Shown here piece after piece: positions 12,939-50,874 of a DNA stretch of 64,000 bases; position 1 is the first letter of the stretch; every line of letters begins with the position of its first letter. The notes below the pieces were generated by a model that saw nothing but the letters and a program-made list of their open reading frames with translations, was not told where the DNA came from and searched no databases. The position numbers and the translations under genes are program-made. Location: positions 868,001 through 932,000 of the forward strand of contig OZ025788.1 of NCBI GenBank assembly GCA_964019425.1, in the 5' to 3' direction. This DNA comes from Flectonema sp. DT1601 (lineage: Eukaryota).

Positions 12939-15183
12939 TTACTTTCTCTTTGGTGCGGCCTTCTTGGCAGCCTTCTTCACAACCTTCTTGACGGTCTTCT
13001 TCACCTTGGCCTGTCCGTTGGTAACCTTGGCGTTAGGGTTCAATCTGTACATGACGGACTTGTTGGTGAGTGGGTTGCTGTGCTTGCGGACTGGCTGGGT
13101 GCTGACGGTACGGGCACGGCAGGCGTTCTTCACTTCCTCAGAGTTGATGATACGCTGAACGTCAGAGACGGTGACGGTTGGGCGTGGAAGGTTGTAGTTC
13201 TTCTTCACTTCGCTCTTGGCGTCAGCTCCTCCGAAGATGGCTGGAAGCTGCTCGAAGGCGGCCTTGGTCCAGATGATGAAACGTCCGACGTGACCACCTG
13301 GGGCGAGCTGGAGGAGGTTCAAGGACTTGACGTTGCAGGTGTCGATTCCTGTTTTAGATTATAATAATTACGTGAAAAATGAAACCATCAACCAAGCTTA
13401 TTCACACAGCCTGGCATCGCTATTGGTACCTCCATAGCGATGCTATGTTTCATCCATAGCTCTGTTTCAGATGAAAAGAACAGAGACTCACGACAAGATA
13501 ACAACATACCGGCGAGGTTCTTGAATGCACGAACACCGTCAGCCTCGGCGAAGACGACGAGAGGTCCACGACGGTTGACGTAACGTCTGTTTCTCATCTT
13601 ACCTCTTCCTGATCTCACTCTCTCGTTGACGGAAACACGTTCACAGTCGGTGGTGGCGTCGAGGTCGGAAAGGGCCTTTACGGCGTCCTTGGCCTTCTGC
13701 AACTTGTCAAGACCGTCAACAACAAGTGGGAACTCGGAAACTTCATCGATCTGTTTTGTTTTGTTTTATTTTGCTTTTTAGTTTTCGATGATATCTCACA
13801 ACGAAAAGAGAAACAAAGGAACATACCTTGTGTCCACGGGCCATGACGAGGGCTGGAACAGCGGAGGCAGCAAGGGCGCTGACGGTGGCGTAACGGCGCT
13901 GGTCACGATTGATACGTCTGTGCCACTTACGGAACACCTTCAATGGTGAGAACATGTGTCCTCCACGGCACATGTTTCCGTATGCTCCCTGTCCGGAACG
14001 GTGGGTTCCACCTCCTCCGGCACGTGGAATACGAGCCACGGCACGTCCCTGTTGTAGTTTTTTTTTTATTCACTGAGTTGATTAACCCGCGAAGAAGCAA
14101 TTCAGATAAGGGAACAGTCTTAACTGGAATTACAATTCATTACCGTTCTCTAAATAGTTACTATGTAAGTTGTAAATTAAGTCACCGACGACTGTTTCTG
14201 TTGCAGGAAACGGAACCCAAGGGAAGAAGTTACACGCACTCAATATTCGTCTTGCGATCTGGAATTGGTAAGCAGATGTGTCTTCGAAGGATTTCCTCAA
14301 AAAGTATCAATCTTAAGGATCGACATCCATACGTAACAACCAACATCGAGTCTCGGATCGACAGATCTCCCAAAGCAGAAGATGTCAACTTCTCAATGGG
14401 GTTGTGGTCATCCTTTCATTAAGGCTTTGCAACAACACCACTTCAAGCAATTACTCGAAGGGAGAAGGCGATCCAACGGATTGACGTCCCTTATTACTTG
14501 CATTCACTCAGGTGGATATTCTCATTAGTCATTGGTGCGACCCAACTAATAAAATTCTTTAATCACCATATTCACAACTAACTTCAGTCTCAGATCGACA
14601 GATCTCCCAAAGCAGAAGATGTCAACTTCTCAATGGGGTTGTGGTCATCCTTTCATTAAGGCTTTGCAACAACACCACTTCAAGCAATTACTCGAAGGGA
14701 GAAGGCGATCCAGCACATCGTCCCAGTAACCGACTTCCACAATTATTAATACTCTGTCTCGGATCGACAGATCTCCCAAAGCAGAAGATGTCAACTTCTC
14801 AATGGGGTTGTGGTCATCCTTAAGTTGTGATCATCATAAAACGCTTCTGAAGATCTTCCAGTAAACACCCTGATCAATCTCTTCAGAACGTTGCTCATCA
14901 ACAGTTCTGTTCTGCTGTTGATGAGACCACAGAGAAGGTAATTATCATGAGCCGCAATAATCACAAAAAAATAATAACATACAGTTCCCCATGACTCAGC
15001 GGTGGCCTGGTGACCAGCTCTTCTCATGACACCCTGGGCCTGACGAGAGTTCTTTCCCATGTCACGGTGAACGGTACGGACAACGTCTGGACGGATTGGG
15101 GCGCAGAAGACTTCTGGGAGGACAATCTTGTCTCCGGCTTTGCCATCAACTCCGAAGACGGTAACTTCTGGACGGGAGGCCAT
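12939..15183 (-). CDS. RPL4: 60S ribosomal protein L4 (uL4), copy 1; exons 15183-14983, 14048-13827, 13750-13510, 13348-12939 (357 aa)
   Basis: Motifs [57 protein letters not shown]. Three GT-AG introns give a 1074-nt frame. Confidence 0.97.
13371..13492 (-). ncRNA. Candidate structured RNA element in RPL4 intron 3 (same sequence at 15865-15986, 17860-17981, 19857-19978)
   Basis: Four directly abutting hairpins, a closing stem CGTGAG/TTCACG, and loop-loop complementarity TTTCATC/GATGAAA. Confidence 0.6.
14258..14330 (-). ncRNA. Candidate guide snoRNA in RPL4 intron 1 with an LSU rRNA antisense element (also 20744-20816)
   Basis: TCTGCTTACCAA is complementary to the conserved LSU sequence UUGGUAAGCAGA. 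Box-like ends (TGGATGT, CAGA) are degenerate. Confidence 0.5.
14353..14414 (-). ncRNA. Candidate box C/D snoRNA, module A (also 14590-14651, 14759-14820, 18657-18718, 20839-20900, 21076-21137, 21245-21306)
   Basis: 62 nt from AGGATGA (C-like) to CTGA/CCGA (D). The D-adjacent GATCTGTCGAT can pair, with G-U, to the conserved SSU segment GAUUGACAGAUU. Confidence 0.65.
14508..14566 (-). ncRNA. Candidate box C/D snoRNA, module D (also in intron 1 of copies 3 and 4)
   Basis: GTGATTA (C-like) ... ATGA ... AGAATATCCAC-CTGA (D). Retained as a unit between paralogous introns. Confidence 0.45.
14831..14948 (-). ncRNA. Candidate two-hairpin intronic RNA, module G (also in copies 3 and 4)
   Basis: Perfect 11-bp stem CTCATCAACAG/CTGTTGATGAG and stem TTCTGAAGA/TCTTCAGAA, bounded by ATGATAA and ATGATGA. 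Confidence 0.5.
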
Positions 15184-15432: not shown

Positions 15433-16922
15433 TTACTTTCTCTTTGGTGCGGCCTTCTTGGCAGCCTTCTTCACAACCTTCTTGACGGTCTTCTTCACCT
15501 TGGCCTGTCCGTTGGTAACCTTGGCGTTAGGGTTCAATCTGTACATGACGGACTTGTTGGTGAGTGGGTTGCTGTGCTTGCGGACTGGCTGGGTGCTGAC
15601 GGTACGGGCACGGCAGGCGTTCTTCACTTCCTCAGAGTTGATGATACGCTGAACGTCAGAGACGGTGACGGTTGGGCGTGGAAGGTTGTAGTTCTTCTTC
15701 ACTTCGCTCTTGGCGTCAGCTCCTCCGAAGATGGCTGGAAGCTGCTCGAAGGCGGCCTTGGTCCAGATGATGAAACGTCCGACGTGACCACCTGGGGCGA
15801 GCTGGAGGAGGTTCAAGGACTTGACGTTGCAGGTGTCGATTCCTGTTTTAGATTATAATAATTACGTGAAAAATGAAACCATCAACCAAGCTTATTCACA
15901 CAGCCTGGCATCGCTATTGGTACCTCCATAGCGATGCTATGTTTCATCCATAGCTCTGTTTCAGATGAAAAGAACAGAGACTCACGACAAGATAACAACA
16001 TACCGGCGAGGTTCTTGAATGCACGAACACCGTCAGCCTCGGCGAAGACGACGAGAGGTCCACGACGGTTGACGTAACGTCTGTTTCTCATCTTACCTCT
16101 TCCTGATCTCACTCTCTCGTTGACGGAAACACGTTCACAGTCGGTGGTGGCGTCGAGGTCGGAAAGGGCCTTTACGGCGTCCTTGGCCTTCTGCAACTTG
16201 TCAAGACCGTCAACAACAAGTGGGAACTCAGAAACTTCATCGATCTGTTTTGTTTTGTTTTATTTTGCTTTTTAGTTTTCAATAAACGAGAAGAGAAACA
16301 AAGGAACATACCTTGTGTCCACGGGCCATGACGAGGGCTGGAACAGCGGAGGCAGCAAGGGCGCTGACGGTGGCGTAACGGCGCTGGTCACGATTGATAC
16401 GTCTGTGCCACTTACGGAACACCTTCAATGGTGAGAACATGTGTCCTCCACGACACATGTTTCCGTATGCTCCCTGTCCGGAACGGTGGGTACCACCTCC
16501 TCCGGCACGTGGAATACGAGCCACGGCACGTCCCTGTTGTAAGTAAGTTGGTATTTTTAATTGCCCACTTGACAGCCACCGTAAGAATCTTAAAGTGAAT
16601 GGACTAGTTAGAGAAGTTTTTATGTTTCACAAAATATGTTATTAAGTACACTAATTTAAATAAATAACAATATCAATAATTTATCATACAACCACATAAT
16701 CACAAAAAAATAATAACATACAGTTCCCCATGACTCAGCGGTGGCCTGGTGACCAGCTCTTCTCATGACACCCTGGGCCTGACGAGAGTTCTTTCCCATG
16801 TCACGGTGAACGGTACGGACAACGTCTGGACGGATTGGGGCGCAGAAGACTTCTGGGAGGACAATCTTGTCTCCGGCTTTGCCATCAACTCCGAAGACGG
16901 TAACTTCTGGACGGGAGGCCAT
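15433..16922 (-). CDS. RPL4: 60S ribosomal protein L4, copy 2 (intron 1 only 188 nt, 16534-16721)
   Basis: Exons nearly identical to copy 1, with the same intron positions. Confidence 0.97.
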
Positions 16923-17427
16923 TTTGGAAATGTGTCGAGTTCTGAAGTGAAATATAAAAACAATAAATTCAAACTAAGCAAAAAGAATTTTCAAGTGACA
17001 ACATGCGGAAAACAATTTTAGCCAAAACCTTTCCATCACATCAGTCGGGTCACAAAAGATTATTCTATCTTGGAGCGGGTTCTGTCTCACTAATTCTATA
17101 AACAGAACTAGTCGATCATCTGCAAGTATTCATCTACTGTTACAGATTGTCCTGAGTAAATAACAATGACGAGACACAATAAAACTATTTAAATGATCAT
17201 AGAATAATCGAAATGACAAGAAGTGAATAAAGGCACTGAACTCCACAAGAGAATTCCAGTAGGCGATCGTTTTTTTTTTTTTTTTTTGTTGGTTTTCAAT
17301 TCCTTGATCAGATAAAAGAGAAAAATAAAAACATTTCCCTAAACTTTTTTTTGTTTTTTTTTTTTGGTGTTTTGTTTTCATAGGGAGGAAGAATTAGTAG
17401 TCGAGATGTCCAAAGTCAGCAACTCGC

Positions 17428-19081
17428 TTACTTTCTCTTTGGTGCGGCCTTCTTGGCAGCCTTCTTCACAACCTTCTTGACGGTCTTCTTCACCTTGGCC
17501 TGTCCGTTGGTAACCTTGGCGTTAGGGTTCAATCTGTACATGACGGACTTGTTGGTGAGTGGGTTGCTGTGCTTGCGGACTGGCTGGGTGCTGACGGTAC
17601 GGGCACGGCAGGCGTTCTTCACTTCCTCAGAGTTGATGATACGCTGAACGTCAGAGACGGTGACGGTTGGGCGTGGAAGGTTGTAGTTCTTCTTCACTTC
17701 GCTCTTGGCGTCAGCTCCTCCGAAGATGGCTGGAAGCTGCTCGAAGGCGGCCTTGGTCCAGATGATGAAACGTCCGACGTGACCACCTGGGGCGAGCTGG
17801 AGGAGGTTCAAGGACTTGACGTTGCAGGTGTCGATTCCTGTTTTAGATTATAATAATTACGTGAAAAATGAAACCATCAACCAAGCTTATTCACACAGCC
17901 TGGCATCGCTATTGGTACCTCCATAGCGATGCTATGTTTCATCCATAGCTCTGTTTCAGATGAAAAGAACAGAGACTCACGACAAGATAACAACATACCG
18001 GCGAGGTTCTTGAATGCACGAACACCGTCAGCCTCGGCGAAGACGACGAGAGGTCCACGACGGTTGACGTAACGTCTGTTTCTCATCTTACCTCTTCCTG
18101 ATCTCACTCTCTCGTTGACGGAAACACGTTCACAGTCGGTGGTGGCGTCGAGGTCGGAAAGGGCCTTTACGGCGTCCTTGGCCTTCTGCAACTTGTCAAG
18201 ACCGTCAACAACAAGTGGGAACTCGGAAACTTCATCGATCTGTTTTGTTTTGTTTTATTTTGCTTTTTAGTTTTCGATGATATCTCACAACGAAAAGAGA
18301 AACAAAGGAACATACCTTGTGTCCACGGGCCATGACGAGGGCTGGAACAGCGGAGGCAGCAAGGGCGCTGACGGTGGCGTAACGGCGCTGGTCACGATTG
18401 ATACGTCTGTGCCACTTACGGAACACCTTCAATGGTGAGAACATGTGTCCTCCACGACACATGTTTCCGTATGCTCCCTGTCCGGAACGGTGGGTTCCAC
18501 CTCCTCCGGCACGTGGAATACGAGCCACGGCACGTCCCTGTTGTAAGTTAGTTGGTATTTTTAATTGCATTCACTCAGGTGGATATTCTCATTAGTCATT
18601 GGTGCGACCCAACTAATAACATTCTTTAATCACCATATTCACAACTAACTTCAGTCTCAGATCGACAGATCTCCCAAAGCAGAAGATGTCAACTTCTCAA
18701 TGGGGTTGTGGTCATCCTTAAGTTGTGATCATCATAAAACGCTTCTGAAGATCTTCCAGTAAACACCCTGATCAATCTCTTCAGAACGTTGCTCATCAAC
18801 AGTTCTGTTCTGCTGTTGATGAGACCACAGAGAAGGTAATTATCATGAGCCGCAATAATCACAAAAAAATAATAACATACAGTTCCCCATGACTCAGCGG
18901 TGGCCTGGTGACCAGCTCTTCTCATGACACCCTGGGCCTGACGAGAGTTCTTTCCCATGTCACGGTGAACGGTACGGACAACGTCTGGACGGATTGGGGC
19001 GCAGAAGACTTCTGGGAGGACAATCTTGTCTCCGGCTTTGCCATCAACTCCGAAGACGGTAACTTCTGGACGGGAGGCCAT
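17428..19081 (-). CDS. RPL4: 60S ribosomal protein L4, copy 3 (intron 1 343 nt, 18538-18880)
   Basis: Exons nearly identical to copy 1, with the same intron positions. Confidence 0.97.
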
Positions 19082-19424: not shown

Positions 19425-21669
19425 TTACTTTCTCTTTGGTGCGGCCTTCTTGGCAGCCTTCTTCACAACCTTCTTGACGGTCTTCTTCACCTTGGCCTGT
19501 CCGTTGGTAACCTTGGCGTTAGGGTTCAATCTGTACATGACGGACTTGTTGGTGAGTGGGTTGCTGTGCTTGCGGACTGGCTGGGTGCTGACGGTACGGG
19601 CACGGCAGGCGTTCTTCACTTCCTCAGAGTTGATGATACGCTGAACGTCAGAGACGGTGACGGTTGGGCGTGGAAGGTTGTAGTTCTTCTTCACTTCGCT
19701 CTTGGCGTCAGCTCCTCCGAAGATGGCTGGAAGCTGCTCGAAGGCGGCCTTGGTCCAGATGATGAAACGTCCGACGTGACCACCTGGGGCGAGCTGGAGG
19801 AGGTTCAAGGACTTGACGTTGCAGGTGTCGATTCCTGTTTTAGATTATAATAATTACGTGAAAAATGAAACCATCAACCAAGCTTATTCACACAGCCTGG
19901 CATCGCTATTGGTACCTCCATAGCGATGCTATGTTTCATCCATAGCTCTGTTTCAGATGAAAAGAACAGAGACTCACGACAAGATAACAACATACCGGCG
20001 AGGTTCTTGAATGCACGAACACCGTCAGCCTCGGCGAAGACGACGAGAGGTCCACGACGGTTGACGTAACGTCTGTTTCTCATCTTACCTCTTCCTGATC
20101 TCACTCTCTCGTTGACGGAAACACGTTCACAGTCGGTGGTGGCGTCGAGGTCGGAAAGGGCCTTTACGGCGTCCTTGGCCTTCTGCAACTTGTCAAGACC
20201 GTCAACAACAAGTGGGAACTCGGAAACTTCATCGATCTGTTTTGTTTTGTTTTATTTTGCTTTTTAGTTTTCGATGATATCTCACAACGAAAAGAGAAAC
20301 AAAGGAACATACCTTGTGTCCACGGGCCATGACGAGGGCTGGAACAGCGGAGGCAGCAAGGGCGCTGACGGTGGCGTAACGGCGCTGGTCACGATTGATA
20401 CGTCTGTGCCACTTACGGAACACCTTCAATGGTGAGAACATGTGTCCTCCACGGCACATGTTTCCGTATGCTCCCTGTCCGGAACGGTGGGTTCCACCTC
20501 CTCCGGCACGTGGAATACGAGCCACGGCACGTCCCTGTTGTAGTTTTTTTTTTATTCACTGAGTTGATTAACCCGCGAAGAAGCAATTCAGATAAGGGAA
20601 CAGTCTTAACTGGAATTACAATTCATTACCGTTCTCTAAATAGTTACTATGTAAGTTGTAAATTAAGTCACCGACGACTGTTTCTGTTGCAGGAAACGGA
20701 ACCCAAGGGAAGAAGTTACACGCACTCAATATTCGTCTTGCGATCTGGAATTGGTAAGCAGATGTGTCTTCGAAGGATTTCCTCAAAAAGTATCAATCTT
20801 AAGGATCGACATCCATACGTAACAACCAACATCGAGTCTCGGATCGACAGATCTCCCAAAGCAGAAGATGTCAACTTCTCAATGGGGTTGTGGTCATCCT
20901 TTCATTAAGGCTTTGCAACAACACCACTTCAAGCAATTACTCGAAGGGAGAAGGCGATCCAACGGATTGACGTCCCTTATTACTTGCATTCACTCAGGTG
21001 GATATTCTCATTAGTCATTGGTGCGACCCAACTAATAAAATTCTTTAATCACCATATTCACAACTAACTTCAGTCTCAGATCGACAGATCTCCCAAAGCA
21101 GAAGATGTCAACTTCTCAATGGGGTTGTGGTCATCCTTTCATTAAGGCTTTGCAACAACACCACTTCAAGCAATTACTCGAAGGGAGAAGGCGATCCAGC
21201 ACATCGTCCCAGTAACCGACTTCCACAATTATTAATACTCTGTCTCGGATCGACAGATCTCCCAAAGCAGAAGATGTCAACTTCTCAATGGGGTTGTGGT
21301 CATCCTTAAGTTGTGATCATCATAAAACGCTTCTGAAGATCTTCCAGTAAACACCCTGATCAATCTCTTCAGAACGTTGCTCATCAACAGTTCTGTTCTG
21401 CTGTTGATGAGACCACAGAGAAGGTAATTATCATGAGCCGCAATAATCACAAAAAAATAATAACATACAGTTCCCCATGACTCAGCGGTGGCCTGGTGAC
21501 CAGCTCTTCTCATGACACCCTGGGCCTGACGAGAGTTCTTTCCCATGTCACGGTGAACGGTACGGACAACGTCTGGACGGATTGGGGCGCAGAAGACTTC
21601 TGGGAGGACAATCTTGTCTCCGGCTTTGCCATCAACTCCGAAGACGGTAACTTCTGGACGGGAGGCCAT
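19425..21669 (-). CDS. RPL4: 60S ribosomal protein L4, copy 4 (intron 1 934 nt, 20535-21468)
   Basis: Matches copy 1 from ATG to stop, introns included, at offset 6486. Confidence 0.97.
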
Positions 21670-31032: not shown

Positions 31033-33054
31033 TGAGAAAAAAAATGGGAGTAAAATTAAAAAAAAAAGAAGACCCTGTCGTAAAAAGCTCTATTGTCGAA
31101 TCTGTCAAATGAGACAACAAAAAAGGCTGGTAAAAATAAAAAATAACTTGAGAAATAAAAGATCTAACGGGTAAAAGAGTCATGAAAATACGTGCGGAAA
31201 CAGCTTCAGTAAGAAGGACGAATGAGACGGGGTATGAGGAATGAACAAACCAAACCTGAAAGAAACCGATCAAAAGGTTAATTTTAGAAATGTGCTACAA
31301 GACATGGTGTAAGGAAAAAAATCTGTTCAATTTTGTTCAGGAACACTTGTGTTGTCTTCAGAAAATAGAGACTACCGAACGTACAATAACAACAACCTCA
31401 ATCGGTGTACAGTCTATATCCAATGACTAACATGTGCACGTTATAAAGAACGCAACAGATATAAAATAATCGCGAAGTAAGATGAGATAGGTTGTTTTCG
31501 TCGCGTACACGAAGGACTAAATCTATCTTAAACAATCCAGTTGGGTTACAACAAGTACTTTGTAGCTTCAAGTAACTCCCTCAGAGAGTACAAGAGACTA
31601 ATCGCTTGGTGCTCATCACTGTAGCTGTAAGTCAGCAAGTAGAAAGGCGTGTGAGAGCAATAAGGGAAGAAATGGATCAAACCCAGTACTATAAGCAGCT
31701 TTGCAATTGTTTGCTGCAAACTATAGAATCTTAAACTGATGTGAATGCACACAATGCGATATTTGAGACCTGGAAGACAAACCCTTCTCGAGGTAGAGCA
31801 GCAAAATAAAAAAAATAAATAAGTAAAAACAAAACCGACATAAAAAGTTAAATAAAAATAGCGCGTCCTTCACCAACACCGTGAGGGTACAGGCAAAGGG
31901 GGAGAAGCAGGCAGTGTTTGTCTTTTGTAACACGAATACCAACATTTCAATAGGAAATGCTGTTGGGCTTAGCAACCCAATGACTTGGTAGTTGAGAAGA
32001 TGACCAACTCATCGCAGAGTGGTCATATAACATATGCGGCTTGATCAAGCTCGCTAAACTAGTCCACGCTAATAGTTTACTGTAAAACAGTCAACACTAG
32101 CAATACACCAGCTCAATAAAAATCACTTTTTAAATCACCGAGATCACAGAGGAATTACCTCAAATGCTGTACAGTCAGCCGAACGAATAAAGGGAGAGAA
32201 AGGAAGCCGGTAAAGTATCTGTCATTCCACCGATGGGAAGGATAATAATTTTAAAGCCTGCACAGTATTGGAATTATAAAAGAGTTCTCCCGACTCTTAT
32301 GTTCTGATCGTAGGCGAGTAAAACGAGTCGCTTGTTCTGCAGAAGCCAACAGCGACTCAGATACACGATCTGTCACTCATGCTGGTTTGAGCAGAAGCCT
32401 GGCCACACGGTCAGTCGCAGGTCTACACGGAACTCAACTGTTCTTGTTATTCACCTCTGTATGTGAGGCAGATTCAAGAATCCTATTTTTGAAATCGTTC
32501 TTGTTCTAGTCACACTCAATGCCGTGTAAATAATTACTATTCTGAGATTAGTATCTGTCGACAATTAAAGTGATCTATTAACGATTCGTACACAAAACTC
32601 TTCACTCTTATTCACATTCTTTCTTTCTAGTAGCATTCTAATTAGTTTGCTACGATCTCTCGAAAGTTGTGAACATCATCCGACAGTACTTGTCAGACGT
32701 ATATATCAATACACTTCAAGGAAACAATAAGTTGGAAACCCAGAAGTGCACTCTACGTACGTGTCCCACGACGTAGGGTTTATCCTTTTTTTCTAAAATG
32801 ATCGTCTCAGTCAATTACAAAGAACCACATTATCGCACTGATGGAGCACCCTTAATGTGGTGGAAGTTCTTCATTTCGGTACCAATCAAAGGGAGAGGAC
32901 CACTAACGGGGTATTGCAGAATAGCCCGAAATGCAGTTTTTGTATAAAACTTAATGTCACACTATACAGCATGTCACGTGTTTTATCCGCAAGAAATGTT
33001 GAGAGAGGTAGAGCTGGCCAAAGCAAAGGAAAGACAAAAGCACGCGGAATTGTT

Positions 33055-41830: not shown

Positions 41831-42295
41831 TTTATTATTTATTTATTTATTATTTATTTACGAAGCCTAGGAAGCCAAAGCCAGGAAAAGCTCACAGAGT
41901 AACAGTTATATCGCTACCAGCAACCGTGAGACTCTCACAGACGATAAGAGACGTAGAATAACCTGGAACAAATGACTACCTAAACCCACCGCCGGCGCGA
42001 GCAGACAGTGTTTGAGACGGCTGATAACGCCAATTTTCGTCAAAGAGAGGGAGAACACGCCAAATTATTTATTTTATTTATTTATTTATTTACGAAGCCT
42101 AGGAAGCCAAAAGCCAGGAAAAGCTCACAGAGTAACAGTTATATCGCTACCAGCAACCGTGAGACTCTCACAGACGATAAGAGACGTAGAATAACCTGGA
42201 ACAAATGACTACCTAAACCCACCGTCCACGCGAGCAGACAGTGTTAGAGACGGCTGATAACGCCAATTTTCGCCAAAGAGAGGGAGAACACGCCA
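41831..42295 (-). repeat. Tandem pair of ~232-bp retrotransposon 3' ends (41831-42062 and 42064-42295), each with its own (TAAA)n tail
   Basis: Direct repeats differing at about six positions outside the tails. Confidence 0.9.
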
Positions 42296-42391: not shown

Positions 42392-45300
42392 TTATCTACC
42401 TCGGGGATTACTTCGCAGGAGGCGACTTAGGCGAGAGAGGAACTTAGAAAGCTTGGATTCCGACCAGCTAGGATTGACCAGCACATTAACCATAGAAAGG
42501 TCGTCAATAACAACATTTAAATCGGTAGCTTTATAAGCGTTATCAATAAGTTCCATAACATATTTCTTCACATCAGAACCCAGTAGCGAGAAACTTGTCT
42601 TCCTTTCGATGTGTGTGATTAGTTTCTTCCTCACAAAAATACCCTGAAGCGGAAACTTCAACAACAACGGATTGTCAGATAACTCTTTAAGATGATTATC
42701 AAGCTTGCTGATCAATAACAACGTGAAAGGCTGCCATTCGGTTCGAAAGAACATATCCAGAGATAGCTCATCATCAGGTGTCGGAAATCTCATGGTTTGC
42801 TTTACTAATTCCCTGGTCTCAACGCATTCAAGCAGCAGATGCTCAGTTGAGGTATCCTGAAAGCCACAGAACAGACAACATTTAAAGCCCGCAGTGACCC
42901 TCGGTAGCTTTACAAGCCTGTGGTGAGAGGTTCGCAGACGAGACAATTCTACCTCCTGCCCCCTATTGAGACAGGGAAGGAAACGCTGAGGGCCAGATCC
43001 TAGAGTCGCTTTGCTGTATGAATGCGAAGAGTCCACAGTACCCATAGCCTTCCAATTTGCTTGTTTCTTAATACAACATTGAGCCATCCTGAAATCATAC
43101 GGAGTTAGTTCAGGGTCAACTGATTGCAAGGCTGCCTTCTTTGCCAGTGTATCAGCCAGTTCATTCCCTGCAATGCCACAATGAGATGGGACATGTTGGA
43201 AAATCAACGGCCTATCAAGAAGCACTGAGCGTTCAAAAATCTCACGATTTGTTGATGATGACTGCCTGGATGGCCCCCTATGCAGGGAGGCAAGCGCCGA
43301 CTGACAATCACTGAAAATATGAATCACGCCATGCGAAACAACATGAAGATTCTCCTCTAGTAGTTCAAGGGCTGACAATAGTGCTAGTTGTTCTGCATTG
43401 TAAATCGTGAGGGACGGTTGGAACTTGGAGAGCTTCTCAATGACCTTGCCAGCAACTAGCAGAACAGCAGCCCCCCCACATAATAATCCCCGCTCCTCGT
43501 CATGGAAGACCGAGGCATCAGTGTAGACTTCAGCAACACACGGGGGCAGTTCATTGAGGGTCGTCATCGCCACAGTATACTTCTCCTCAGGTGTGTCAGT
43601 CTTGTCATAACCGCAGGACGTGTTTACAACCAAAGGAGGATGCTTCGACCACGGAGGGTACTGATGTGGCAGAACTTTCTGGGACCTAAGCTCTGACAGA
43701 GAAAATTCCGAGGAACAGGCTTCAACTCTAGTCTGCCATGGTCTCTTCTTCTCACCACCGTTAAACAGCCTCCATGAAGGACATTCAGGTTGTCGCCTTA
43801 GCAAATCTTCATGAACTAGGGCAAGGAGCCTAGATATCGTTTGTTGCAGCGGTGGAATTCGCGACTCAACTGTGAGCACCACATCCTTCGTCGAGAACGA
43901 GCAACCAGTGAGTCTTATCCTTAGATGACGCAAGCACGCTTCGATCCGCTTGATCTGAGCATCAGACAAAAAGGGAGAAAAGGCCTTTAGTCCAAAGAAC
44001 GCTCGAGATAACACTGCACCATCTACAAGCTGACGAAGGGTATCAGTTTTGACCTCATAGGCAGAGAACATTTTGAGTAAACCGCAACCAGCTCGAATTG
44101 TTTTCACAATCTTATCCACCTGTTCGTCGAAGCATAGCGAGTCATCAATGATAACTCCTAGGTATTTCGCGCTCCTGACACGTTTCAGCGGGATCGCTGC
44201 TTTCAGCCTGAACTCTTTGCTCTTACGAGCACAGGCCAGTCGGACAAAGTCAGAACGTCTCGTCACCGGGTAACCATCAATCTCCAGTGGCAGCAAAGCA
44301 TCAGCGAGATCCAGAACTGCCCCTATTGATGGAGAAAGCTTCTCAGTGAGAGCACCGGCAGAGCCTGTAGGCATGTGTAACTCTTCAACAGACGATGGGA
44401 AGTAAAAGCGAGGTGCCCTACTCCATTCGACATCGGAGCCAGAGATGCGCTTACCAAAGGCAACGTACTCTGTTTTCTTCATGTTTACCTCCATCTTAGA
44501 GGAAACCATCCAACCTTCTATCTGAGAGATGACGGACAGGCCCTTCGCTTCGATCCCATCTATCTTCTCATGTTGCAGAAACACGGCAAGATCATCAGCA
44601 AACAGAACACTGAGATCAGCATCACTTATTAGACCTGGCAGGGAGTCGACAAAGATCCGAAATAAGAGAGGACCAAGCACAGATCCTTGAGGGACCCCCT
44701 TTGTACACGATCTGGATCCATTATCTAATCCCAGAGACAGACTCACATTTCTATCCGAAAGATAATTCGCAAGCCATTTAACATACGGAACCGGCAGGAC
44801 AGCTACCAATCTATCAACGAGTATTTGATGATCCACGTTATCGAATGCCCCAGAGATATCAAAGAGGATGATCGCTCCATAACCATCATAGAGTTTCTGC
44901 ACACCGGAAGCCGCATCCACCAATAGCGAGATGTTCTCTTCTACATTTCTGCCCGGCGTAAAACCAGACTGCCTAGGGTCCAACTTCCCCTCCAACAAAT
45001 GTTCACATCGATTACCTACAAGCGACTCCAAGCACTTCGAAACAATTGACGTCAAAGAGATTGGTCTGTAAGAAGACGGAAGAAGCGGGTCACGATCCCC
45101 TCCCTTCGGAATTATTATCACCTTGGCCTTTTTCATGCAAGAGGGAAAGATACCCCTCCTGAAAGATAGCGAGGCGAGTCTAAGCAATAGTAGGAGCATA
45201 CGGGGACCCAAGTTAAGCAGCATATTATTAGAAACAGAATCTAAACCAGACCCGTGGGAGGGAGTCAATGACTTCAGTACCGTGTATAACTCATGAATCG

Positions 45301-46555
45301 AAAAAGAACCACAGCTTGAGTCATCATAATCAGCAGGCTTCGAATCAGGAACTAATAACGGTGAGGATTTTGAATCACCAAAGAAATGGTCGAGTAAATC
45401 ATCAGCAGCTACCGGAACTTCCTTCGAATTAGACCGACCGCCCCTGAGTTCCCGCAGTTTGTCGAAGGCCCAGGCCGCTCCTTTTGAAGAACCAATTTTC
45501 GCAATAAGATCAGGTCTCAGCTTAGGTAATTTCTTCCTCCGCTTCGTATCAGATTTGAACCATTTGTTTGGAAGCGTTTCAATAGCCACCTCCTCAATTA
45601 GACTAATAAATTCACATCCAAGCTTGTTCACATTAGACATCCCCTCCAAACGATGAGCTCGCGCTTCAGTTAGCACGCGAAATGAGACCCAGTGCTCATC
45701 CTCGAACTTGTTGTAGAACCAGCGGCGGTGAGCGGGAGTGGTAATTTGTGAGCAGCCCGGATATACCGAGATGTCAACCACTATTGGCGTGTGGTCGGAC
45801 CCACTATCAGACGCACTGTATTGGTGTACATTCAACACCTCAATATTGCTGTCGACAAGAAACAAATCAGGTGAAGTCTCTGAACAAGGTCTTGTATCCA
45901 GCGGAACATCGCAAATCTGCAGTCCATTTCCGTTAATCCAATCAAGAACTGACAGACCTCGCGACGAACTACTTGTTGGAACCACCCTCGACCACGACCG
46001 ATGGTGAGCATTGAAATCTCCACATACTACTTCACCGAAGACAACAGAGGTCGGCACCAAGAAATTCTGCGGAATATACACATTAGAAGACGTAATCGGA
46101 CCGATGTCTGTCATTACCTCGACAACTAACACCTCAAACGGTGAATTACGCTCAGTTGGATCCGATAATCTCCTGACCACAAGGGAGTCCCTGCAGAAAG
46201 TCGCCAGTCCACCACCGCGTTTTGCCTTGCCATCAAAATTTAATCTGATTCTGTCCCTACGGAAGCAGGTGTATCCCTGAAGTTGAATCTGTTCATCAAG
46301 AACCAGATCAGTGAGCCAAGTTTCTTGAATATGGAGGATGTCAGGATTAGCCGATTGAACGAGCCGTACCAGAGATTCATGGTGCTTTACCATCGACAGC
46401 GCATTCCAACTAAGTATTCTCAGCGGCGATATATCAGACATCGGACCAGGGTGTCTCGGAAAACCACTACGATAGAGTTCCAGAAGCCCACTCACAGAAT
46501 AATAGTACTCCAAGGACGGAGTCTTTCCCAATAAAGAGTCAATTGGAAGTGGTTG
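42392..46555 (-). CDS. Retrotransposon ORF2: AP endonuclease, reverse transcriptase, RNase H, CCHC finger (first ATG at 46441; frame open from 46555)
   Basis: APE: SWNA, IQETW, GDFNAHH, SDH. RT: YRPISLTS, QSGF, FDISGAFDNV, GVPQGSVLGP, FADD, KYLGV. RNase H: YTDAS, AEQLAL, FSDCQS, HVPSHCGIAGNELAD. Finger: CLFC..H..C. Confidence 0.97.
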   Translation of the reverse strand, partial: QPLPIDSLLGKTPSLEYYYSVSGLLELYRSGFPRHPGPMSDISPLRILSWNALSMVKHHESLVRLVQSANPDILHIQETWLTDLVLDEQIQLQGYTCFRRDRIRLNFDGKAKRGGGLATFCRDSLVVRRLSDPTERNSPFEVLVVEVMTDIGPITSSNVYIPQNFLVPTSVVFGEVVCGDFNAHHRSWSRVVPTSSSSRGLSVLDWINGNGLQICDVPLDTRPCSETSPDLFLVDSNIEVLNVHQYSASDSGSDHTPIVVDISVYPGCSQITTPAHRRWFYNKFEDEHWVSFRVLTEARAHRLEGMSNVNKLGCEFISLIEEVAIETLPNKWFKSDTKRRKKLPKLRPDLIAKIGSSKGAAWAFDKLRELRGGRSNSKEVPVAADDLLDHFFGDSKSSPLLVPDSKPADYDDSSCGSFSIHELYTVLKSLTPSHGSGLDSVSNNMLLNLGPRMLLLLLRLASLSFRRGIFPSCMKKAKVIIIPKGGDRDPLLPSSYRPISLTSIVSKCLESLVGNRCEHLLEGKLDPRQSGFTPGRNVEENISLLVDAASGVQKLYDGYGAIILFDISGAFDNVDHQILVDRLVAVLPVPYVKWLANYLSDRNVSLSLGLDNGSRSCTKGVPQGSVLGPLLFRIFVDSLPGLISDADLSVLFADDLAVFLQHEKIDGIEAKGLSVISQIEGWMVSSKMEVNMKKTEYVAFGKRISGSDVEWSRAPRFYFPSSVEELHMPTGSAGALTEKLSPSIGAVLDLADALLPLEIDGYPVTRRSDFVRLACARKSKEFRLKAAIPLKRVRSAKYLGVIIDDSLCFDEQVDKIVKTIRAGCGLLKMFSAYEVKTDTLRQLVDGAVLSRAFFGLKAFSPFLSDAQIKRIEACLRHLRIRLTGCSFSTKDVVLTVESRIPPLQQTISRLLALVHEDLLRRQPECPSWRLFNGGEKKRPWQTRVEACSSEFSLSELRSQKVLPHQYPPWSKHPPLVVNTSCGYDKTDTPEEKYTVAMTTLNELPPCVAEVYTDASVFHDEERGLLCGGAAVLLVAGKVIEKLSKFQPSLTIYNAEQLALLSALELLEENLHVVSHGVIHIFSDCQSALASLHRGPSRQSSSTNREIFERSVLLDRPLIFQHVPSHCGIAGNELADTLAKKAALQSVDPELTPYDFRMAQCCIKKQANWKAMGTVDSSHSYSKATLGSGPQRFLPCLNRGQEVELSRLRTSHHRLVKLPRVTAGFKCCLFCGFQDTSTEHLLLECVETRELVKQTMRFPTPDDELSLDMFFRTEWQPFTLLLISKLDNHLKELSDNPLLLKFPLQGIFVRKKLITHIERKTSFSLLGSDVKKYVMELIDNAYKATDLNVVIDDLSMVNVLVNPSWSESKLSKFLSRLSRLLRSNPRGR

Positions 46556-48277
46556 TTAATTCCTCGAGTAGTCCCGTTTCTCATTCCGGTCAAGACGGTC
46601 AGCCATTTCAGACTTAGTAGCAGCAACAGAGTTAGCTCGTTGCCTACTTGAGACCGTCAGCCTCTGAGAACCCGATCCTTTATCGTTATTCAGGGACTCA
46701 ATCTCCTTTCGAAGACATCTATTCGCATCCCTCTCTTCAGCAAGGTCCTGCCGTAGACTCTTCACAGCAGCCGTTAGTTCAGTAACCTGCGATACCAATT
46801 TAGAAATGTCGGATTGTTGACAGTTGTACTGCGAAGGCGGTAGGGGCAGCTGCTGTTTGTTCGATTGTAGCGTCTGCAGATATTGCTGATTTTGCTGATT
46901 TTGCTGAGAAACAGGCGGTGGTGATAAATCAATTCCAACAGATGGCGCAGCGTTAGGTTGACAGAGGTGAGGAAACTCGTCCAGGTCCATCTTATCGGGA
47001 TTCTGCTTGCCGAGACCCACCTCTTTGATTGTGATCATGTCATCACGAAGAATGATGAAGTTACTCTTGGGTTTCTCCTTGGCCACTACAATCATCTTAG
47101 GAAGCTCCTTTCTGCTCCTGTACCTAGCAACGACGTTAATCTCCCACCCTTGGTGAGCACAGACCTGCACTACTTCCAGCGAACTCATCGCATCAATTGC
47201 TCGGCTCCTCAAACAGAACTTGAGGCCTTCAGGTGGAGGCGGCAGTGCATTCTCACCCAGCTTCGATCGCACGTAATCTTCGTCGGTCTTCAGACACACA
47301 ATCCCCAGCTTGCGTGAGTGGCGGTAGAACCTCAGAGGTAACCGGAGTTCACCGGCTAGCGATGAGGCTAACTTAAAATCCACCGTGAGCTGGATTGACG
47401 ACCTGCACGGTGCTGTGTCTGCGAAATTCGGTACTGATAAGAAGTACCCACCACTCCCACTTGCCCTTCTCAAGGCGTCAACAGCGTCTGCTGGCACCCT
47501 CATGTTCACAGACTTAACATGAGGGTCTGATTCCTTCTTGTTGGCAGGCCACAAGAGGTGCGGCTCGATGGGCATGTTCGTGACTGCTGTGTAGTAGTCA
47601 GAAGCCTTCTTGCACAACTCATTAGGTGAAGGTACCTTGTCGTTGGAGTGGAGCGCGTGGTGGTGGAACAATACCACTCGATTGTCACCGGCAGTCAGAG
47701 CGTCTCCACGGAAGAGGGTAGCTGGTTTCCCGGTTGATACAATCCAACCGGTCCGATGTGTCAGTACACCGTCGTTTACCACCGCCGGGAACTGTATCTT
47801 CTTACCGCCCCCAGGGTTTTTCTTGCAAATTACCGAGAGGTTTGTTCCCGGTCGGAGTTTAATCATCGCATCTACATCAGAGGCCGTGCCCAGTGACACA
47901 CCACACGTAATCGACGTGTTAAACACGCCTGACATCGAAATTATTGGAACAGACCAGTCATCATCACGGAGTTGGCAGTCCCACCGCTTCTCTTGCACAT
48001 TCGGTAAATTAGTTGCTGCCTTCCCATCACATCGGACCTCCTTCAGTCCACTAAACGAATTCAGCGCTTGAGCCGGCTCAGGCTTGCGCTTCACTACCTT
48101 GGGCCGCTTACCACGTACCCTCGTCCATTCCTCATTCATCGGCGATAAATCCACCGATGGCTTCTCTCCCCCGTTGCGTTTAGTAACCCCCTTTACATTC
48201 AAACCCTTCTGCATCTCACCGAGCATGCCCACCATCTTCTCCAGCATCAGGCCAAATAGGCCTGGATCCAATGTCAT
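46556..48277 (-). CDS. Retrotransposon ORF1 (573 aa; Q/P-rich segment and C-terminal coiled coil)
   Basis: Long ORF directly upstream of, and in frame with, ORF2. No zinc knuckle seen. Confidence 0.85.
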   Translation of the reverse strand: MTLDPGLFGLMLEKMVGMLGEMQKGLNVKGVTKRNGGEKPSVDLSPMNEEWTRVRGKRPKVVKRKPEPAQALNSFSGLKEVRCDGKAATNLPNVQEKRWDCQLRDDDWSVPIISMSGVFNTSITCGVSLGTASDVDAMIKLRPGTNLSVICKKNPGGGKKIQFPAVVNDGVLTHRTGWIVSTGKPATLFRGDALTAGDNRVVLFHHHALHSNDKVPSPNELCKKASDYYTAVTNMPIEPHLLWPANKKESDPHVKSVNMRVPADAVDALRRASGSGGYFLSVPNFADTAPCRSSIQLTVDFKLASSLAGELRLPLRFYRHSRKLGIVCLKTDEDYVRSKLGENALPPPPEGLKFCLRSRAIDAMSSLEVVQVCAHQGWEINVVARYRSRKELPKMIVVAKEKPKSNFIILRDDMITIKEVGLGKQNPDKMDLDEFPHLCQPNAAPSVGIDLSPPPVSQQNQQNQQYLQTLQSNKQQLPLPPSQYNCQQSDISKLVSQVTELTAAVKSLRQDLAEERDANRCLRKEIESLNNDKGSGSQRLTVSSRQRANSVAATKSEMADRLDRNEKRDYSRN

Positions 48278-50874
48278 AGTTGTTAATTATTGGAAATCAA
48301 TAAAGTACAGAAATAGTTTGCACAATAAAGTACAGATGAAATGAGTAGTATAAAGTTTCAACAAAGACGGTAAATCCGAGAATGATTTTTGACAACAACT
48401 TTAATCACAATAACAATAATGGAGCAATGAGATGAAGCTGAGAGCGAGCCCTACAAAAAACAAAAAAAGAAAACAGCTGCTGCGCAAAACAGCATCTGCC
48501 TATGCATTATAAAAGAGTGCACTTTGCAGACCAACAAGCACACGAGATAAATGAGAAGTTGGGTATAAAAAAAATAAAAAAAAATCTTTTTTTTCTCTTT
48601 TTATAGTAGTGATTATTAGTCAAGACCCAAACATACCAAAGTAGCCTAAAAACTTTTTTTTTTTAGATTAAGCGAGGATTCCTCTCATTTTTAAAGAAAC
48701 TGCGGTTAAACTGATATTTATATTTGTCGGGACTTCAGTTTCTAGAAATGAGCCCACGTTACTGAAAACAGTGTTCGTTAAATTAAGCGGTGGTCACTGG
48801 GAGTCTACTCAAATTAGCAAAGTGGTAGTTACTTTATAATAACAATACAAGTATTTTACTTAAACCAGCAATCGTCAACAACTGTGATCTCGGTCACATC
48901 GACCGAGGTCACAGCAAGTTATTGTCATTATTCAAAGAAACGATTGCAAAGCAGTTTTTTTTTCTCTCTTTTTTTTTGTATATCTTTACTCAAAGCGACA
49001 AACCCTTCATATGCTGCTGTATGGTCACCTTCTGGAAAAGACAAGTTGTCTTATGTACAAACAACGTTTCACGCAACAAAGAAAGACGTGACGACATGAA
49101 CGGGAGTAGAAACAAAAGGAAAGTCGAGAGAACATTATAAAAGAAAGAAAAGAATAACAAAAAAAAAAAGAAAATGGTCGCTCATTTTTTACGTGACTAG
49201 CTTCACTCTTTATTTTTAAACAATTGCTTGTTTGGCTAAATAATTTTAAAAAAAAATTAATAAACACGAAAAACATTATGAAAAAAGAAACATGAGAATC
49301 CCAAAATAGTGAAGAAAAAACAGATGAGTTGGTAGAGGGAGAATTCAACAACACTGCAGTGACTTATCTTTATAAAAGAAAACTCGGCTGCATAATTGAA
49401 ATTCAAAGGAGAAGAAAAGAAAAAAGCAACTCTTTAGAACCGCCTTCTGCTGCTAATCGAATCGAGAGTTGCGAATAAACGCCTCGTATTTCTGCAAGGT
49501 TAGACTTACAACGGATTTTATTCGAAAAGGTATCCTTTTATTTTATTTTATTTTTTGCACTTTCATCGGAGAAACAAAAACCATTCAGATTAAGAGAGCG
49601 GTTACCCATGCCATTATTATTTAGTATTACTGTCTTCGATCAAACAAGGCTGAATCTGAAGGTTCAATTAATGGTCTCTTTTGTTAGTTTTTTTATTTTA
49701 TTTCATTTAATCAACTTCCTTCTTTTCCTAATCTACTGCTTTCAATCAGTGAAAAAGTAGTAGACAACGCAAGATATCAACAAGCATGTCAAGTTATGAA
49801 TACTTGTTGAAAAGTGATGTCTCCTTCACTAAGGAACATGTGAGCCTGTTGCAGGTCAATAATTCTTTTTATTTTTTTTTTTAAAAACAAAATCAAGTAG
49901 GGAATAAGGGCTTATTGCATATATTGCTGACCGAACCCGCTCTTAAGCAAGGCAGGGATTACAAAAAAAGAACAGCAAAAGCAAAAAAACAAGTGATTAT
50001 TTTAATTTTGGGCTGGGGATAACTCACATCAACAGAAAAACTAAAATCTGCTGACGGAGGGCTAATTACATAACGATTTTATGTCTTAAAACATTCAGAG
50101 AAAAGCAAAAAAAAACAATAAGCGGATAATAGGGATGGATGACAAATTAGTGACTTCATGGCAATTGAAATTAAGTTTTCTTTATTCTCTATTTACATCT
50201 TCTAAATAGTAGTTCTTGTACAACCATGGAGGCCAATTATTGAACATAAAAGAAAAAGGCGGATTTTGAGGAATGGTTTGCCTGATAGTTGTTTGATGAG
50301 GTTCAATCGCACGAAGTAACCAACAAAACAAAACATTGGCAAAGTGACGGGAGCGAAAAGAGAAAAAAAAAAGAAAACACACTCAGCTTAGGGGTGTCAA
50401 TATTGGAATTGCTTTGGAAAGTTTTGTCGACAACAGAAGAAATTATTATGCCTCATCTAAAACAGGACGTAGGCATGCCCTCCGGACTGAGATTGATGAA
50501 CGTGACGTCACAGTATATATGAAGCACACATGATCCGATGTACTTTATGTTGCTGCTTGTGTTGCCTGATGAGGAGTAATAATAAAGAGAAGGAAGATTT
50601 TCAAAAAAAAAAAAAAAAAAAAAAAAAAGAACAATGAAATGAGCTATGCTATTCACCCAGCCCTAAATAATAAAAAGAAAAAAAAGAATTCCCTCTTTCG
50701 GCAAAGCTGACACCTCTAATTGTCAAACAGTAATATTCAAATGATAAATCTTTTAAAACTCAACCGTGAAAAAGAAAACAAATAACAACTATTGGGGTGA
50801 CAAGTATCTTGAGCATGACTTTATATACAAGCAATCGCTACACGTAGGTACCGTACTTCTTTCACAGCTCCAAG

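Follow-up and report, generated by a model that had tools for sequence, protein, structure and literature searches.

The third intron of the RPL4 (uL4) genes in the 64,000-nucleotide stretch of diplonemid DNA analysed here (the window) probably codes for a ~100-nt box C/D snoRNA. Judging from its sequence, this RNA would guide 2'-O-methylation at the second A of GAUGAAAAG in the large subunit (LSU) rRNA. A preliminary description of the intron had left a choice between a uL4-responsive splicing element and an intronic ncRNA. The ncRNA branch gains from an rRNA antisense element followed by D' and C' boxes, whereas we found no support for the uL4 switch. The predicted RNA most likely belongs to a known class, namely box C/D snoRNAs. 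Table 1 collects the features.

Table 1. Predicted and observed features of RPL4 copy 1 and its introns (window coordinates)
Feature	Position	Strand	Basis or remark
RPL4/uL4 copy 1 in the array of four tandem genes	12939..15183	-	357 aa
Intron 1, several C/D-like RNAs	14049..14982	-	box scan
C/D-like RNA, C AUGAUAA, 11-bp internal hairpin, D CUGA	14948-14883, also 18846-18781	-	box scan
Three tandem C/D-like RNAs of ~62 nt, C AGGAUGA, D CCGA or CUGA	14820-14759, 14651-14590, 14414-14353	-	box scan
C/D-like unit, GUGAUUA...CUGA	14566-14508	-	sequence
Intron 3, 161 nt, GTATG...CAG, phase 1	13349..13509	-	identical copies at 15843-16003, 17838-17998, 19835-19995
Predicted mature box C/D snoRNA, ~101 nt, predicted ends	13397..13497	-	k-turn scan
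5' arm of predicted terminal stem, CUUGU (partner AUAAG, 13401-13397)	13493..13497	-	k-turn scan
Candidate C box GUGAGUC, degenerate (4/7 consensus)	13485..13491	-	top-scoring k-turn partner of candidate D box
Antisense element to LSU rRNA AGAUGAAAAGAAC, 13 nt; loop 1 of the preliminary description	13469..13481	-	exact match; 11 nt 5' of D' box
D' box CUGA (4/4 consensus)	13467..13470	-	directly 3' of antisense element
C' box UGGAUGA, core GAUGA perfect; overlaps loop 2 of the preliminary description	13450..13456	-	sequence, k-turn scan
Candidate D box GUGA (3/4 consensus), in HP4 loop	13402..13405	-	k-turn scan
In-frame TGA upon intron 3 retention	13388..13390	-	reading frame
3' arm of closing stem and 9-nt antisense to LSU UACGUGAAA	13369..13377	-	rRNA comparison
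Closing stem	13492-13487/13376-13371	-	predicted fold
HP1	13485-13460	-	predicted fold
HP2	13459-13443	-	predicted fold
HP3, stable internal stem of 9-11 bp	13415..13442	-	inner part like HP2 at 16/20 positions
HP4 of free-RNA fold; competes with predicted terminal stem	13392..13414	-	predicted fold

Four RPL4 genes and a spliced third intron

The window contains four tandem RPL4 genes on the minus strand, with starts at 15183, 16922, 19081, and 21669. Each copy has three GT-AG introns and an intact frame of 357 codons. The closest named proteins are from diplonemids: Flectonema neradi comes first (90–94%, exons 3–4), and Diplonema species, Lacrimia, and Rhynchopus come next. The GTATG donor, the CAG acceptor, and the A-rich 3' end of intron 3 are consistent with the Diplonemidae introns in the available part of PMC12621601.

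We compared 8 of 18 listed runs, as assembled contigs rather than reads. RNA-type contigs from three of four runs, representing two studies, skip exactly the 161 nt of intron 3 (X1, X2, and X3). In two of four further runs (one sample), a relative's mRNA is joined over the intron 3 site. The interior of intron 3 is covered by contigs in none of the eight runs, the informative ones being spliced mRNA. This gap carries no information on retention or expression, as contig cover is likewise missing over the greater part of intron 1, C/D-like repeats included (14085–14795). Neither a metagenome scan of 80 loci nor the eight runs yielded an orthologous RPL4 intron 3; the four closest of the 80 loci (65–79% identity) resemble intronless mRNA contigs. 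As the preliminary description had stated, retention of intron 3 would stop translation at a TGA that is in frame.

That description had also pointed to the invariance of intron 3 among the four copies while introns 1 and 2 vary. Intron 3 is indeed identical in all four. However, the four copies also agree fully in exon 1 (201 nt) and in exon 4 (410 nt), so the identity of intron 3 is uninformative and carries no weight as evidence; exon 3, too, is identical in every copy past its 15th base. The invariance is accounted for by homogenisation. As for the variation of intron 2, it is confined to just one of the four copies. The exons are nearly identical while the spacers between copies are mostly dissimilar, and these sequence patterns therefore suggest exon-centred gene conversion among the RPL4 copies.

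Other features of the window include a tRNA gene at 2602–2672 on the plus strand (Rfam, 53 bits) and, on the minus strand at 42392–48286, two adjacent long ORFs of 576 and 1387 aa. By eye, the 1387-aa ORF reads as an endonuclease/reverse transcriptase/RNase H non-LTR retroelement. Direct repeats of 191 nt lie at 41877 and 42110.

An rRNA antisense element with D' and C' boxes

The longest match between intron 3 and the compared rRNAs is the 13-nt antisense element, whose exact complement AGAUGAAAAGAAC belongs to conserved domain I of eukaryotic LSU rRNA. AGAUGAAAAGAAC is present in the Rfam RF02543 consensus and, exactly, in all five (non-host) LSU loci that span the site. Our rRNA set of 5.4 kb was made up of eukaryotic fragments that motifs taken from the window had recovered from public contigs, with 5' and middle LSU pieces identified as RF02543 by Rfam; all of the target rRNAs come from non-euglenozoan LSU. 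Contigs L125, L128, L157, L158, and L167 are small eukaryotic rDNA contigs inside public bacterial assemblies, that is, contamination (Rfam). A search of viral contigs turned up no diplonemid rRNA.

Directly 5' of the D' box, Watson-Crick pairing to the rRNA extends over 11 nt (13 including the box), within the 9–20 nt expected of antisense elements next to D or D' boxes. The D' and C' boxes are 10 nt apart, with box pairing U-U/G-C/A-U. D'-linked guides are in common use (available part of PMC8817022). Under the +5 rule for methylation targets (available part of PMC13487219), the predicted target is the second A in GAUGAAAAG, at position 370 from the start of the L167 match. The guide-target duplex has a predicted energy of -18.1 kcal/mol. 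Presumably, this nucleotide corresponds approximately to yeast 25S A373, with a 3-nt offset between the numberings.

How often would such an arrangement arise by chance? A 13-nt match to the 5.4-kb rRNA set alone occurs in 1.1% of shuffles, and a guide of at least 11 nt joined to CUGA in 0.14% of 20,000 shuffles. The full combination of guide, CUGA, and GAUGA within 30 nt is found in none of 50,000 shuffles and none of 674 real tiles, and a looser rule is satisfied by 33 of 50,000 shuffles; the criteria were chosen post hoc. Two other antisense matches in intron 3 (10 nt at 13397–13388 and 8 nt at 13440–13433) were rejected, as they are at chance level and have no D box after them.

The weak point of the box C/D reading is the terminal boxes. 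Among all GA pairs, GUGAGUC/GUGA ranked first, with tandem sheared pairs, two wobble pairs, a 3-nt bulge, and a 5-bp stem. This geometry was equalled in 20 of 3000 shuffles, and the boxes reach only the partial consensus given in Table 1. The predicted RNA stops 48 nt before the 3' end of intron 3, and no target for a D-linked guide was found in the non-host rRNA set. An Rfam search, proposed as a check in the preliminary description, matched no family to intron 3, either at the gathering threshold or at E≤10. Among the classes with no Rfam match in the intron are tRNA, spliceosomal snRNA, U3, RNase P/MRP, SRP, riboswitches, and ribozymes.

The Leishmania/T. brucei table in the available part of PMC13487219 gives no methylation near the estimated equivalent position (~413), and the available part of its supplement contains no snoRNA with the intron 3 guide. 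We considered the Leishmania modification LSU5_407, which has no guide assigned, as the same site and rejected it: position 407 lies ~6 nt upstream of the predicted target when counted on the printed L. major sequence with 400 letters assumed to be shown. When the guide or target letters were looked for in literature full text, no snoRNA paper appeared, by title, among the matches listed, and a literature search on diplonemid snoRNAs found no paper.

Several units bounded by C and D boxes are also present in intron 1 of copies 1, 3, and 4. Read by eye, the D-linked stretch of the 14948–14883 unit pairs with a conserved LSU site over ~10 bp, two of them GU. Just ahead of its C[CU]GA, the thrice-repeated unit pairs with a conserved SSU site over 11 bp, again including two GU. 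The number of these ~62-nt units is 3, 0, 1, and 3 across the four RPL4 copies. By eye, the D-linked stretch of the 14566–14508 unit matches 9 nt of the 3' region of L. major 5.8S. Intron 1 of copy 2 (16534–16721, minus strand) is AT-rich and without a C/D-like cassette. The spacer upstream of copy 2 contains a weak Rfam C/D match (snoZ155, E 2.2; 16972–17046, minus strand) and, in the 17119 region or at 16972–17046, an 11-bp LSU pairing before AUGA; from these sequences, further snoRNAs in this spacer are possible.

Because intron 1 also holds C/D-like RNAs, RPL4 of this diplonemid probably serves as a snoRNA host gene, as it does in human, where it carries the intronic C/D RNA SNORD16 (available part of PMC7359415). 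A snoRNA in intron 3 is therefore unremarkable.

The predicted fold and competing explanations

The preliminary description had proposed four abutting hairpins with zero-nucleotide linkers and a closing stem, and every arm of these is present on the minus strand. The four hairpins and the closing stem dominate the predicted ensemble (pair probabilities 0.44–1.0). The core has a minimum free energy of -41.1 kcal/mol (z -3.7), which was matched by none of 1000 shuffles; it is still significant without HP3 (z -3.5). For the whole of intron 3, z is -2.7 and 9 of 1000 shuffles are as stable. Because z≤-3.5 is also seen for 5 of 186 real tiles (122 nt each) from other parts of the window, the core fold is in roughly the top 3% and is not unique. 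Control tiles at 32000–32122, 48800–48922, and 50000–50122 have folding z of -3.5 to -5.3. The GC content of the core is 0.43, versus 0.14–0.29 for the ends of intron 3, intron 2, and intron 1 of copy 2.

The 7-bp complementarity between loops 1 and 2 is real as well (p 0.004–0.01 under loop shuffles), and GTTTCAT, put forward as an alternative partner, has a predicted helix probability of 0.29. Loop 2 consists of the C' core GAUGA followed by AA, and the rRNA target starts GAUGAAA. Five of the seven loop-loop pairs follow from the target and the C' box, and the chance of the remaining two is ~0.07. The apparent kissing loop would thus be mostly a by-product of the guide target and the C' box, because the target itself starts with the C'-box letters GAUGA. 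It is possible that loop-loop pairing masks the guide in the modelled fold.

If intron 3 encodes a guide snoRNA, the intron would be spliced out and its lariat trimmed to ~13497–13397. Snu13 would bind the terminal k-turn formed by the degenerate GUGAGUC and GUGA boxes and the 5-bp stem. In the assembled snoRNP, the D' and C' boxes would bring fibrillarin into place, and the A to be methylated would be given by the +5 rule. The four-hairpin wheel would be the fold of the free precursor, which buries part of the guide together with the C box; in the predicted free-RNA fold, holding the guide and boxes unpaired costs ~13 kcal/mol. Pairing with rRNA would open HP1 and the closing stem (cofold with a 22-nt target, -52.0 versus -43.7 kcal/mol). 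Precursor stems beyond the mature snoRNA are known in other species (available part of PMC8817022). A simple guide RNA needs no such strong fold, and the strength of the fold is not fully accounted for, so a chaperone form or a regulated switch is conceivable.

The chaperone form, which we consider unlikely, would be a non-methylating C/D RNA that grips LSU domain I at both the 13-nt guide and the 9-nt element (13377–13369), with the five-way fold as a functional or precursor state. Its precedent is yeast snR190, for whose D'-linked antisense box no methylation is detectable; as in the intron 3 RNA, this antisense is partly held in an internal stem, and one element pairs with domain I (available part of PMC8536666). 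In all five LSU loci, the complement of the second element, UACGUGAAA, lies 3' of the main target at a distance of ~20 nt, and a strong fold with weak terminal boxes would suit such an RNA. However, a 9-nt match alone is at chance level against 5.4 kb of rRNA, and the element is outside the predicted mature RNA with no D box after it. Also, the snR190 sites (H73 and the 5.8S-pairing region of domain I; available part of PMC8536666) differ from the intron 3 target, and snR190 has no sequence match to intron 3 in Rfam.

Alternatively, the structure might be neutral or decaying: short local duplications would have produced the abutting hairpins, and these would surround what is left of a dead snoRNA. 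Under hairpin-preserving nulls, HP2 is similar both to the inner part of HP3 (p 0.0005) and to the 3' half of HP1 (p 0.004), which suggests that the fold went through short local duplications in the past. Within the window, the HP2/HP3 pattern is confined to the four intron 3 copies, and there were no exact matches to HP2 in viral contigs. The degenerate terminal boxes and the control tiles that fold equally strongly also fit a relic. On the other hand, the guide has no mismatch along its 13 nt, neither the D' box nor the C' core is damaged, and TRF finds no tandem array; we view a relic as very improbable.

Least credible of all is a cis element whose binding by free uL4 inhibits intron 3 splicing and, by way of the premature stop, provides feedback, with the rRNA match due to chance: the stable predicted fold, the in-frame stop upon retention, and the precedent of the eL30, uS4, and eL22 genes (available part of PMC8047918) speak for it, but the combination of guide, D' box, and C' box is left unexplained, neither splice site is within the well-supported part of the fold, copy identity carries no information, and local alignment at the sequence level finds no likeness to the E. 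coli S10 leader (p 0.78) or to 23S 295–343 (p 0.60). The S10 leader (L4 feedback) and the intronic elements of eL30, uS4, and eL22 are likewise multi-hairpin RNAs in ribosomal-protein transcripts, where retention would lead to a premature stop; unlike theirs, the loops of intron 3 are accounted for by snoRNA motifs.

Relation to known snoRNAs and significance

The predicted snoRNA resembles SNORD16 of human RPL4 in its host gene family and intronic site (available part of PMC7359415). SNORD16/U16 targets SSU Am484 (Table 1 of PMC8817022, available part), whereas the intron 3 RNA would target LSU domain I. More generally, box C/D guides in ribosomal-protein genes share with it an rRNA antisense of 9–20 nt directly 5' of CUGA and a C' core downstream. 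What sets the intron 3 RNA apart from these intronic guides is the lack of an Rfam match, the degeneracy of its terminal C/D boxes, and a precursor fold of unusual strength. We do not claim homology to SNORD16/18.

Kinetoplastid box C/D snoRNAs lie in polycistronic clusters and are not known from a cis-spliced ribosomal-protein intron. The box C/D snoRNAs of T. brucei and Leishmania are, like the intron 3 RNA, euglenozoan and of similar size (available parts of PMC13487219 and PMC6411936). Variant boxes, such as UUGA in the D position, also occur among the sequences listed, and the guides listed in the available part of PMC13487219 are without the antisense element of intron 3.

If intron 3 encodes a plain guide, then the result is a modest one: an unannotated snoRNA missed by Rfam, whose predicted site in LSU domain I is absent from the available Leishmania/T. 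brucei table (PMC13487219). The result would be of greater interest if the closed fold of the precursor were a regulated alternative state that ties snoRNA release to uL4 production. uL4 contacts LSU domain I. In a switchable snoRNA of this kind, which we regard as decidedly unlikely, the closed five-way fold would bury the C box and mask the guide, and its opening would decide whether the snoRNA is released with splicing or the intron is retained, with a premature stop. The opener might be snoRNP proteins, a pre-rRNA that pairs through two sites in domain I, or free uL4. If this were true, uL4 output would be coupled to the folding of the domain of the LSU to which uL4 binds.
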